Positions 59,079-59,968 of a DNA stretch of 64,000 nt are shown here, in pieces. Position numbers and translations under genes: made by a program. The DNA comes from a virus. The stretch covers positions 57,352 to 121,351 of the IMG/VR virus record IMGVR_UViG_3300044472_000055. The stretch is one strand, 5' to 3'. Each line of letters starts with the position of its first letter. The stretch's first letter is position 1. The notes under the pieces are model-generated. The model was not told where the DNA came from and did no database searches. It saw only the letters and a list, made by a program, of their open reading frames with translations.

Positions 59079-59176
59079 AGTTCCTTGGAAGGGTTCGCGA
59101 TGCGTCGCGTTGCCTTAGGCCGCGTTGCAACGCCCGACGGTGCATTGCGTGGCCCGGCATAGCCTCGCGTCGCGCG
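59079..59176 (-). repeat. pentamer tract 5: 16 units + CCAAGGAAC
   Basis: RC every 5 nt 59097-59172 (one exception). Confidence 0.85.
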
Positions 59177-59187
59177 GAAAAATAGGG

Positions 59188-59265
59188 GTGACCTTGGAGC
59201 GCGTCGCCATGCAGAGCAGGGCTGCACCACGCAGTGGCTCGCTACGCCCGGCCATGCTGCGCAGA
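59188..59265 (-). repeat. pentamer tract 6: 13 units + CCAAGGTCAC
   Basis: RC every 5 nt 59201-59261 (one exception). Confidence 0.85.
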
Positions 59266-59280
59266 GAAAATCAAACAGAG

Positions 59281-59410
59281 GTGACCTTGGGTTGGGGCGC
59301 GATGCAATACAGCGCAGTGCGCTGCCATGCGCAGCCCAGCTGCGATTTGCAGTGCGCTGCCATGCGCAGCTACGCATTGCAGTGCGCAGCATTGCCAGGC
59401 CACGCAGAGC
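59281..59410 (-). repeat. pentamer tract 7: 23 units + CCAAGGTCAC
   Basis: RC every 5 nt 59299-59409 (one exception); internal 22-nt duplication. Confidence 0.88.
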
Positions 59411-59540
59411 GACTACCTGCGCTTACCAAACGCGCTGAACACCAGATCGTTGCCAGGCTCTGCGTCGCAACAAAAAGGGCCCTGGCTTGTATACTAGTAA
59501 TACAACGGTTACGGCTGGCCTGGGAAGTTTATACCAACCT

Positions 59541-59753
59541 TCATCCGCCCGACGTCGAGCCTGAGGCTCCTCGACGAGCACGGTTTCGATCGCGCCACGG
59601 CGAGATCGCAATTGGTGGCCACCAATCGGAAGGCTTGCCTAGGATGCGGCGCACGATGCGAATCGTCCGGGTCCAGCATTCGGTGCAAACCTCGCCGTAC
59701 GGCCCACGATTGGATGCGCCACCGCCACCGCACGCATGACAGTAGAGCGCCAT
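59541..59753 (-). CDS. small CxxC protein
   Basis: MALYCHAC...CTEC; RBS from the tract 8 tail. Confidence 0.5.
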   Translation of the reverse strand: MALYCHACGGGGASNRGPYGEVCTECWTRTIRIVRRILGKPSDWWPPIAISPWRDRNRARRGASGSTSGG

Positions 59754-59758
59754 CGAGA

Positions 59759-59856
59759 ATGTCCTTGGTTCGGGTTGCGTCGCAGAGCATCGCAGCGCCA
59801 CACGAGTCCTCGCCATGCGCCACATAGCCTTGCCTCGCATCACGAGGCCCTGCCTG
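59759..59856 (-). repeat. pentamer tract 8: 16 units + CCAAGGACA
   Basis: RC every 5 nt 59777-59852 (one exception). Confidence 0.85.
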
Positions 59857-59868
59857 ATGAAAAATGTA

Positions 59869-59968
59869 GTGACCTTGGATCGCGAAGCTATGCGCCGCCC
59901 GGCATTGCCGCACGTAGCGTCGCCTCACCTTGCGCAGCCACACGTAGCGTCGCCTCGCGTTGCAATGG
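59869..59968 (-). repeat. pentamer tract 9: 17 units + CCAAGGTCAC
   Basis: RC every 5 nt 59882-59962; internal 16-nt duplication. Confidence 0.88.

Follow-up and report, generated by a model that had tools for sequence, protein, structure and literature searches.

Published VIPR Systems and the Locus Under Study

The closest described counterparts of the two repeat arrays considered here, arrays A and B of a 64,000-nt stretch of phage DNA (IMG/VR record IMGVR_UViG_3300044472_000055, positions 57,352–121,351; hereafter the window), are the VIPR systems. In VIPR, a minimal Cas7-like RAMP protein called Vipr (RRM core, G-loop and thumb) is combined with vrRNAs and usually with an accessory vap gene; a vrRNA comprises 9–16 GGY/NN pentamers and, at the 3' side, an invariant tail (10.64898/2026.04.26.720920). 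According to the same article, three of the four vrRNAs of Escherichia phage SUSP1 lie in one tandem array, tandem vrRNA arrays give RNAs of about 100 nt, and the NN bases pair with double-stranded DNA, with every third target base being skipped. The natural targets are competing phages and satellites, with no self-targets, and the systems of SUSP1 and P. fulva work in trans on DNA (10.64898/2026.04.26.720920). In the published structure, one protomer is bound per repeat, G1 is contacted by His17 and Asp177, G2 by Arg138 and Trp178, and Y3 lies in a narrow pocket (10.64898/2026.04.26.720927). Alternative repeat classes (NNNGG, YNNNG and NNNNG) are named in the Methods of 10.64898/2026.04.26.720920, further ones (WGT/NN, TGH/NN and others) in 10.64898/2026.10.21.760802, and solo vrRNAs from satellites and VIPR-null phages, which redirect a foreign Vipr, are described in 10.64898/2026.10.15.759431.

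Based on sequence comparison, arrays A and B are most probably tandem vrRNA genes of a VIPR system, the protein of which is encoded 1.5 kb away. The presence of a Vipr homologue, the linkage of such tracts to its gene and the design of the RNA make this the best reading of the arrays. Under it, they are a variant of VIPR with a free scaffold position 1 and a short linear tail. VIPR was first described in 2026, its tandem vrRNA arrays as well as its relaxed repeat classes have been published, and the arrays are no new kind of system.

Organization of Arrays A and B

When read on the minus strand and in pentamer register, array A comprises three units (59080–59421) and array B two (59760–59964), each with 13–25 pentamers of the form N-G-Y-N-N. 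At its 3' end, a unit passes in register through one or two worn pentamers (NCCAC type) into (U)CCAAGG. The internal units carry the tail CCAAGGTCAC followed by a U-rich linker of 13–17 nt, and the final unit of either array places CCAAGGA 8–10 nt ahead of an ATG. The parts of the arrays and the gene of the associated protein are as follows (window positions):

59297–59421, minus strand: T7, first tract of array A, 25 pentamers N-G-Y-N-N (GC in 22/25, G-Y in 23/25)
59281–59296, minus strand: tail of T7, CCCAA-CCCAAGGTCAC, in pentamer register
59264–59280, minus strand: U-rich linker T7/T6, CTCTGTTTGATTTTCTC / CUCUGUUUGAUUUUCUC, doubling as the UUUC-type 5' flank of T6
59199–59263, minus strand: tract T6, 13 pentamers
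59188–59198, minus strand: tail of T6, TCCAAGGTCAC
59175–59187, minus strand: U-rich linker T6/T5, CCCTATTTTTCCG / CCCUAUUUUUCCG
59095–59174, minus strand: T5, last tract of array A, 16 pentamers
59080–59094, minus strand: tail of T5, ACCCU-UCCAAGGAAC (..TCCAAGGAAC), with an ATG at 59073
59880–59964, minus strand: T9, first tract of array B, 17 pentamers
59869–59879, minus strand: tail of T9, TCCAAGGTCAC
59855–59868, minus strand: U-rich linker T9/T8, TACATTTTTCATCA / UACAUUUUUCAUCA
59775–59854, minus strand: T8, last tract of array B, 16 pentamers
59760–59774, minus strand: tail of T8, CCCGA-ACCAAGGACA, with an ATG at 59753
61501–62139, minus strand: vipr, encoding a stand-alone Cas7-like RAMP protein of 212 aa that is homologous to SUSP1 Vipr

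An earlier sequence-only reading, made without database searches, had described tracts 7-6-5 and 9-8 as back to back, each with its own tail, and its coordinates, tails and linkers proved to be correct on the minus-strand pentamer reading. It had also proposed a polycistronic pre-guide analogous to a CRISPR array, cut in the linkers, for a RAMP-like protein. The first part of this proposal, tandem units with their own tails for such a protein, is supported, as gene 61501–62139 encodes the homologue of SUSP1 Vipr and tandem vrRNA arrays have been published, whereas the analogy to a CRISPR array is only loose, since there is no long identical repeat and the conserved element amounts to an 11-nt tail plus a variable linker.

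No sigma-70-like promoter was found anywhere in 55300–63400, and the 12 terminator-like sites listed for this region are all outside arrays A and B; an array without an internal promoter or terminator-like site is compatible with a single precursor. Searches against Rfam gave four tRNA matches and nothing else at the gathering threshold, and, at E ≤ 1 over 55300–62500, two chance-level rows, neither of them a hammerhead. Thus, no CRISPR direct-repeat or ribozyme family was detected via Rfam, the spaces between units included.

By homology to SUSP1, a leftward transcript of the small genes of the region would carry the tracts as well, one Vipr protomer would be bound per pentamer, holding G2 and Y3 and leaving the variable bases exposed, and the invariant (U)CCAAGG end would mark the 3' end of the guide. 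We infer that single guides may be freed by cuts in the U-rich stretch after each tail, with a host single-strand endonuclease as the likely cutter. As in SUSP1, the loaded filament would then bind the double-stranded DNA of a competing mobile element by non-contiguous pairing and silence its transcription.

Both T7 and T9 contain internal partial duplications of 4–6 pentamers (AGCTG-CGCAT-GGCAG-CGCAC occurs twice in T7), which suggests guide growth by local duplication, or two overlapping guides.

The Vipr Homologue

The product of vipr matches PHROG 4652, a family without an assigned function (E-value, 9e-17). Among 996 candidates, 737 relatives were found at E ≤ 0.001, none of them with a Pfam family, and their lineages include Alphaproteobacteria, Desulfovibrionaceae, Planctomycetota and others. 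The AlphaFold2 (AF2) model of the protein (pLDDT, 76.7; pTM, 0.75) matched 120 PDB chains at E ≤ 0.001 in a Foldseek search, with Csm3/Cas7 chains as the best matches (9g9g_D; E-value, 2.5e-6; TM, 0.52–0.57). With a profile built from 27 family members, the sole PDB sequence at E ≤ 1 was 36pp_D, 'SUSP1 Vipr protein' (E-value, 5.9e-9), and hhalign of the family against SUSP1 AVU07_agp039 yielded a probability of 97.4% (E-value, 1.4e-11) over 175 columns with 22% identity. The G-loop, GDWRP...GRF, is common to the family and SUSP1 Vipr. His17 of SUSP1, which contacts G1, is aligned with a nearly invariant Asn19 in this family; judging from the alignment, such a replacement would fit a free first scaffold base.

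No Cas or defence model in Pfam, PADLOC or NCBIfam matched vipr or nine of its neighbours, and BLASTP revealed no similarity of the 126-aa and 149-aa neighbours to vap1. More distant homologues of the protein (25–29% identity) are present in 25 Mycobacterium and 6 Gordonia phage records of the phage collection and in Pseudomonas phage vB_Pae_LESphi2, and all of these are annotated as hypothetical.

Composition of the Tracts

Regions with at least seven of ten GC dinucleotides at 5-nt spacing number 15 in the genome, as compared with 0–2 per first-order Markov simulation (n = 20). When one mismatch was allowed, CCAAGGTCAC had ten matches (five of them exact), while over 100 dinucleotide shuffles the number of matches averaged 3.07 and never exceeded 7, so that ten was reached in 0/100. 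The genome contains 57 CCAAGG sites, 12 of which are preceded by at least 6/10 phased GC. In the 12 tracts of the window, GC is present in 183 out of 212 units and G-Y occupies positions 2–3 in 202 out of 212. The 185 GC units fall into 60 distinct pentamers, and the tracts are therefore not simple microsatellites. (U)CCAAGG follows in register after 10 of the 12 window tracts; the two others, named after their positions in kb, are T60.9, which has GCAAGG, and T61.4, in which the tail is one base off.

UUUC or UUCU is found at most 16 nt upstream of 8 out of 12 tracts, against a background of 8%, which indicates that the 'linker' of the arrays is a general 5' flank and not an array spacer alone. 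Fold z-scores range from −1.62 to 1.21 overall, and a hairpin after the tail was seen only at T30k, a solitary tract. No guide content common to the window tracts was detected above the level of shuffles. A literature search on pentanucleotide or 5-nt periodicity in intergenic phage DNA found nothing relevant among the papers listed.

Other Units in the Genome

The 121-kb phage genome has a total of 14 units of this one design, 12 of which belong to the window. Except for four elsewhere in the genome, they are dispersed among small genes across 7 kb, and 7 of the 14 sit between vipr and the integrase gene. The units outside arrays A and B are the following (window positions unless stated otherwise):

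62187–62302, minus strand: T62.2, 21 units and the CCAAGGTCAC tail, directly upstream of vipr
61393–61493, minus strand: T61.4, 15 units, directly downstream of vipr, with the tail CCAAGGAG shifted by one base
60870–61008, minus strand: T60.9, 26 units, variant tail GCAAGGTTACC
57513–57629, minus strand: T57.5, 20 units, tail CCAAGGATTCTTCTATG and start codon
55683–55758, minus strand: T55.7, 13 units, tail CCAAGGATTCCTCATG and start codon
43455–43543, minus strand: T43k, solitary, 15 units, tail TCCAAGGCTAGCC
30203–30320, plus strand: T30k, solitary, 15 units, tail CCAAGGTCACC, then a CTCGTC..GACGAG hairpin
G000:C1:11884–11957 and G000:C1:33599–33702 (genome positions, outside the window), minus strand: two units of tract and CCAAGG, far from vipr

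The sequencing runs listed for this DNA include no RNA run, and contigs of four DNA runs gave fragmentary cover. A 246-nt contig of DNA run X1, which aligns with 62090–62354 (the start of vipr and T62.2), differs by 22 changed letters and 31 gap letters; short deletions are numerous at 62186–62229, inside tract T62.2. It may represent a co-occurring strain with a different T62.2 guide, evidence that is too thin to count.

Linkage of Tracts to vipr in Relatives

For the analysis of linkage, loci were retrieved through the Vipr protein alone, and a tract was scored when it lay within 200 nt of the gene. A GC-phased tract was found beside the vipr homologue in 51 out of 65 loci (32/42 in IMG/VR, 9/9 in metagenomes and 10/14 in genomes). 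In relatives, 26 of the [C/G/T]CAAGG tails after tracts shared the strand of vipr, as compared with 2 on the opposite strand. In two loci (L152 and L153), the tails are followed by terminator-like hairpins.

The closest relative available, L121 (Vipr identity of 69%, tblastn), has the integrase and three other genes of the region in common with the window. Its units are arranged differently, with three upstream of vipr, two directly downstream, two solitary and a 3-unit array beyond the integrase, and the arrays are thus not invariant. No guide content common to the window and L121, L122, L128, L140 or L146 was detected above shuffles, the best guide match to L121/L122 being 0.58 as compared with a best shuffled value of 0.60. 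The comparison of array content among related phages, which the sequence-only reading had put forward as a check on its arrays, came out in its favor. In the metagenome scan, the highest identity was 61%. In L126 and L137 (Vipr identity of 55–61%), G or T prevails at the first scaffold position; there is thus a gradation, on the same strand, from the tracts of this clade to the canonical GGY form.

Phage contigs commonly contain high-complexity GC-phased tracts: when IMG/VR was scanned with a pattern of ten phased GC, at least 120 loci were obtained, in which the fixed triplet (GGC, CGC or TGC, plus NN) is specific to the lineage and the linkers are conserved. A Vipr homologue was found in 27 of the 120 pattern-scan matches listed.

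In an IMG/VR contig with 68% GC (L033:6550–7180), five GCC-NN tracts alternate with elements of ~35 nt that resemble the T-arm and acceptor halves of tRNA (GG..CTCGAACCC..). ARAGORN gave only one odd 94-nt tRNA-Ala in this region, and Rfam gave nothing; the elements may be tRNA-like processing signals between guides. Another two loci carry 142 uninterrupted GGC-NN units (L011:6302–7008) and 56 GCC-NN units (L046:7607–7883), as compared with 9–16 in published vrRNAs. In a phage contig with 38% GC (L005:950–1323), four TGC-NN tracts of 11–12 units are each followed by an identical hairpin pair with a period of ~105 nt, an AT-rich counterpart of the array.

Target Searches and Evidence Against Guide Function

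Several results weigh against the interpretation of the tracts as vrRNA guides. The 12 window guides, compared under ten pairing rules with the phage genome and 162 loci (L001–L162), together 1.77 Mb, matched no better than shuffles, and 602 guide orientations from all of the loci under eight rules gave as many matches as shuffles did (for example, 63 real vs. 59 null matches for rule xNN at ≥0.8). The diversity at the variable positions fits hypervariable guides, but neutral drift could give the same. The canonical GGY rule does not hold at position 1, where T, C, G and A occur with frequencies of.31,.27,.25 and.17, and position 4 (G,.35; A,.34; T,.21; C,.10) is C-poor and not codon-like; A accounts for.39 of position 5. 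The usage of N4N5 is only weakly correlated with that of codon positions 1–2 of this phage (r, 0.38). No structure was predicted for the tail (z-scores of −0.42, 0.49, −0.01, 1.21 and 0.40), and no conserved neighbouring gene that might be a vap was detected, the largest neighbour cluster comprising 8 out of 60 loci and the window belonging to none.

The failure to find targets says little, as 1.77 Mb is a tiny search space and natural targets are expected in competing elements outside it. No self-target in the phage genome was found above shuffles, in agreement with published VIPR.

Tails as Putative Ribosome-Binding Sites and Alternative Explanations

The tail lies 8–10 nt before a start codon in 5 out of 12 window units (T5, T8, T55.7, T57.5 and T61.4). 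In T5, it is AAGGA that is found at this distance from the ATG at 59073, which makes the tail a Shine–Dalgarno-like site as well, and the GTG at 61384 has its ribosome-binding site in the T61.4 tail. The gene behind the latter (61004–61384) has homologues (PHROG 1540; E-value, 6e-9), and a relative of the gene behind the T55.7 tail (55437–55679) is present in L121. In at least four relatives (L129, L130, L138 and L139), vipr itself has the tail as its ribosome-binding site. The other seven window units (T6, T7, T9, T62.2, T60.9, T30k and T43k) do not abut a start codon.

With a CCAAGGA tail that doubles as the ribosome-binding site of the gene behind it, loading or maturation of the guide and translation of that gene may be mutually exclusive. 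It is conceivable, though in our estimate rather unlikely, that in this clade the UCCAAGG end of the guide serves as the Shine–Dalgarno sequence of the next gene, that Vipr loading or guide cutting is coupled to translation, and that the free first base gives each repeat a three-letter variable code, the reading rule of which differs from the published 1-nt skip. If this were true, translation coupling would be a built-in feedback of the guide–protein system. No mention of the tail as a ribosome-binding site was found in the available text of 10.64898/2026.10.15.759431, 10.64898/2026.04.26.720920 and 10.64898/2026.04.26.720927, supplements aside, nor any of autoregulation in that of 10.64898/2026.10.15.759431. 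Among the papers listed by a literature search on vrRNA and translation, none contains the term 'vrRNA'.

The same tails, in the window as well as at vipr itself in the four relatives, could be explained if the tracts were cis-acting landing pads in mRNA leaders, with Vipr covering the 5' untranslated region up to CCAAGGA and thereby tuning translation, and with the variable bases holding no targeting information. Empty target searches and variability at the N positions, which is equally expected from neutral drift, would also agree with such a role. However, more than half of the window units (7/12) abut no start codon, a hairpin follows T30k and terminator-like hairpins follow the tails in L152 and L153, and the homologous systems of SUSP1 and P. 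fulva are described as working in trans on DNA (10.64898/2026.04.26.720920). We therefore consider cis-acting landing pads to be improbable.

Another possibility is that some or all of the units are decoys or 'solo' vrRNAs directed against the Vipr machinery of a competitor, rather than guides of the phage itself. Solo vrRNAs that redirect a foreign Vipr have been published (10.64898/2026.10.15.759431), and two units of the window (at 30 kb and 43 kb), together with the two outside it, are far from vipr. On the other hand, one tail is common to all of the units, including those that flank the phage's own vipr, so that all of them should load onto the phage's own Vipr, and the searches revealed no target of either kind. 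Decoys thus appear to be highly improbable.

Least credible of all, to the point of being nearly negligible, is action of the tracts as double-stranded DNA (5-bp protein sites or structure) or their origin as functionless, selfishly expanding repeats: the GC dinucleotide is palindromic, so that the rhythm itself has no strand, but the tails are strand-specific, keep strictly to the register of the tracts and have the same orientation as the genes, the tracts are linked to a homologue of an RNA-binding RAMP protein in 51 out of 65 loci, and a single phase is kept across 60 different pentamers. Arrays of double-stranded DNA operators were likewise dropped because the linked protein is a Vipr homologue.

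Genome Context

A single contig of 121,351 bp, with a G–C content of 61%, ends with the 64 kb of the window. Phage replication genes (DNA polymerase and helicases) were identified on the contig by PHROGs, and the minus strand carries all of the genes from about 54.6 to 64 kb of the window. Megablast of 55000–64000 against the phage collection gave no match, and no relative was retrieved from IMG/VR by the integrase. The genes near the arrays include the following:

57638–58624: tyrosine integrase gene
58870–59073, minus strand: Cys-rich open reading frame (ORF) of 67 aa directly 3' of array A, without a family match
59541–59753, minus strand: Cys-rich ORF of 70 aa (MALYCHACGG...) 3' of array B, without a family match

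Both of the Cys-rich products start with M-x-x-(P)-Y-C-H, and BLASTP between the two showed no similarity; they are possibly small zinc-binding proteins. ARAGORN also predicted a tRNA with a four-base anticodon (ttat) at 4569–4642 of the window, on the minus strand.

Comparison with Known Systems

VIPR is a very recent class, and the experimental work on it rests on two closely related clades. As a vrRNA-based system, this phage would be a natural example that is rich in guides (14 units) and belongs to a distant and widespread Vipr clade. With its relaxed scaffold, its minimal tail and its guides inside mRNA leaders, the example would provide material for finding out which scaffold bases Vipr needs. 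The same example bears on how guides leave arrays without ribozymes, and on whether guide production is tied to gene expression.

The Bacillus trp leader binds TRAP through repeats of (G/U)AG plus NN. Similar to the tracts described here, it combines a short fixed word with two or three free bases at a 5-nt step near a ribosome-binding site; the genome of this phage, in contrast, shows no TRAP-like protein, and its tracts are linked to a RAMP protein instead. A TRAP-like ring protein on an mRNA leader with a 5-nt step was accordingly dropped as a candidate, the linked protein being a Vipr homologue.

As in CRISPR arrays with Class 1 Cas7, a RAMP protein would polymerise on the guide at a fixed step, and tandem guides share a conserved cap. 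The step is 5 nt in this phage and 6 nt in CRISPR, and in the phage neither identical repeats of 23–47 nt nor, among vipr and nine of its neighbours, cas1/cas2 or any other cas gene were found. Moreover, the whole 'spacer' bears the protein-binding rhythm.

When the unit is written from its pyrimidine, it reads C/U-N-N-N-G and falls into the YNNNG class, tracts of which are reported to adjoin Vipr-like folds (10.64898/2026.04.26.720920). The available text of 10.64898/2026.04.26.720920 and 10.64898/2026.10.21.760802, supplements aside, only names the classes and gives neither a tail nor an array layout nor a reading rule for this one.

The system most similar to that of the phage is the Type II VIPR of SUSP1 (AVU07_agp039, vipr; AVU07_agp038, vap1), as described in the available text of 10.64898/2026.04.26.720920 and 10.64898/2026.04.26.720927. 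Both have a stand-alone Cas7-like Vipr of ~200 aa with a common G-loop, repeats of 5 nt on the vipr strand and on both sides of the gene, some of them in tandem arrays, and an invariant 3' tail, and both are phage-borne, without a CRISPR array or cas genes. The identity between the two Vipr proteins is 22%, and vap1, which is present in SUSP1, has no homologue that was found in this phage. The scaffold is N-G-Y in this phage and G-G-Y in SUSP1, and the tracts comprise 13–26 units as compared with the published 9–16. In SUSP1, the tail is a pseudoknot of ~40 nt, whereas in this phage it is an 11-nt linear motif without a predicted fold, which, unlike the SUSP1 tail, often doubles as a ribosome-binding site. 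Finally, the four units of SUSP1 are found at one locus, whereas the 14 units of this phage are dispersed among small genes.

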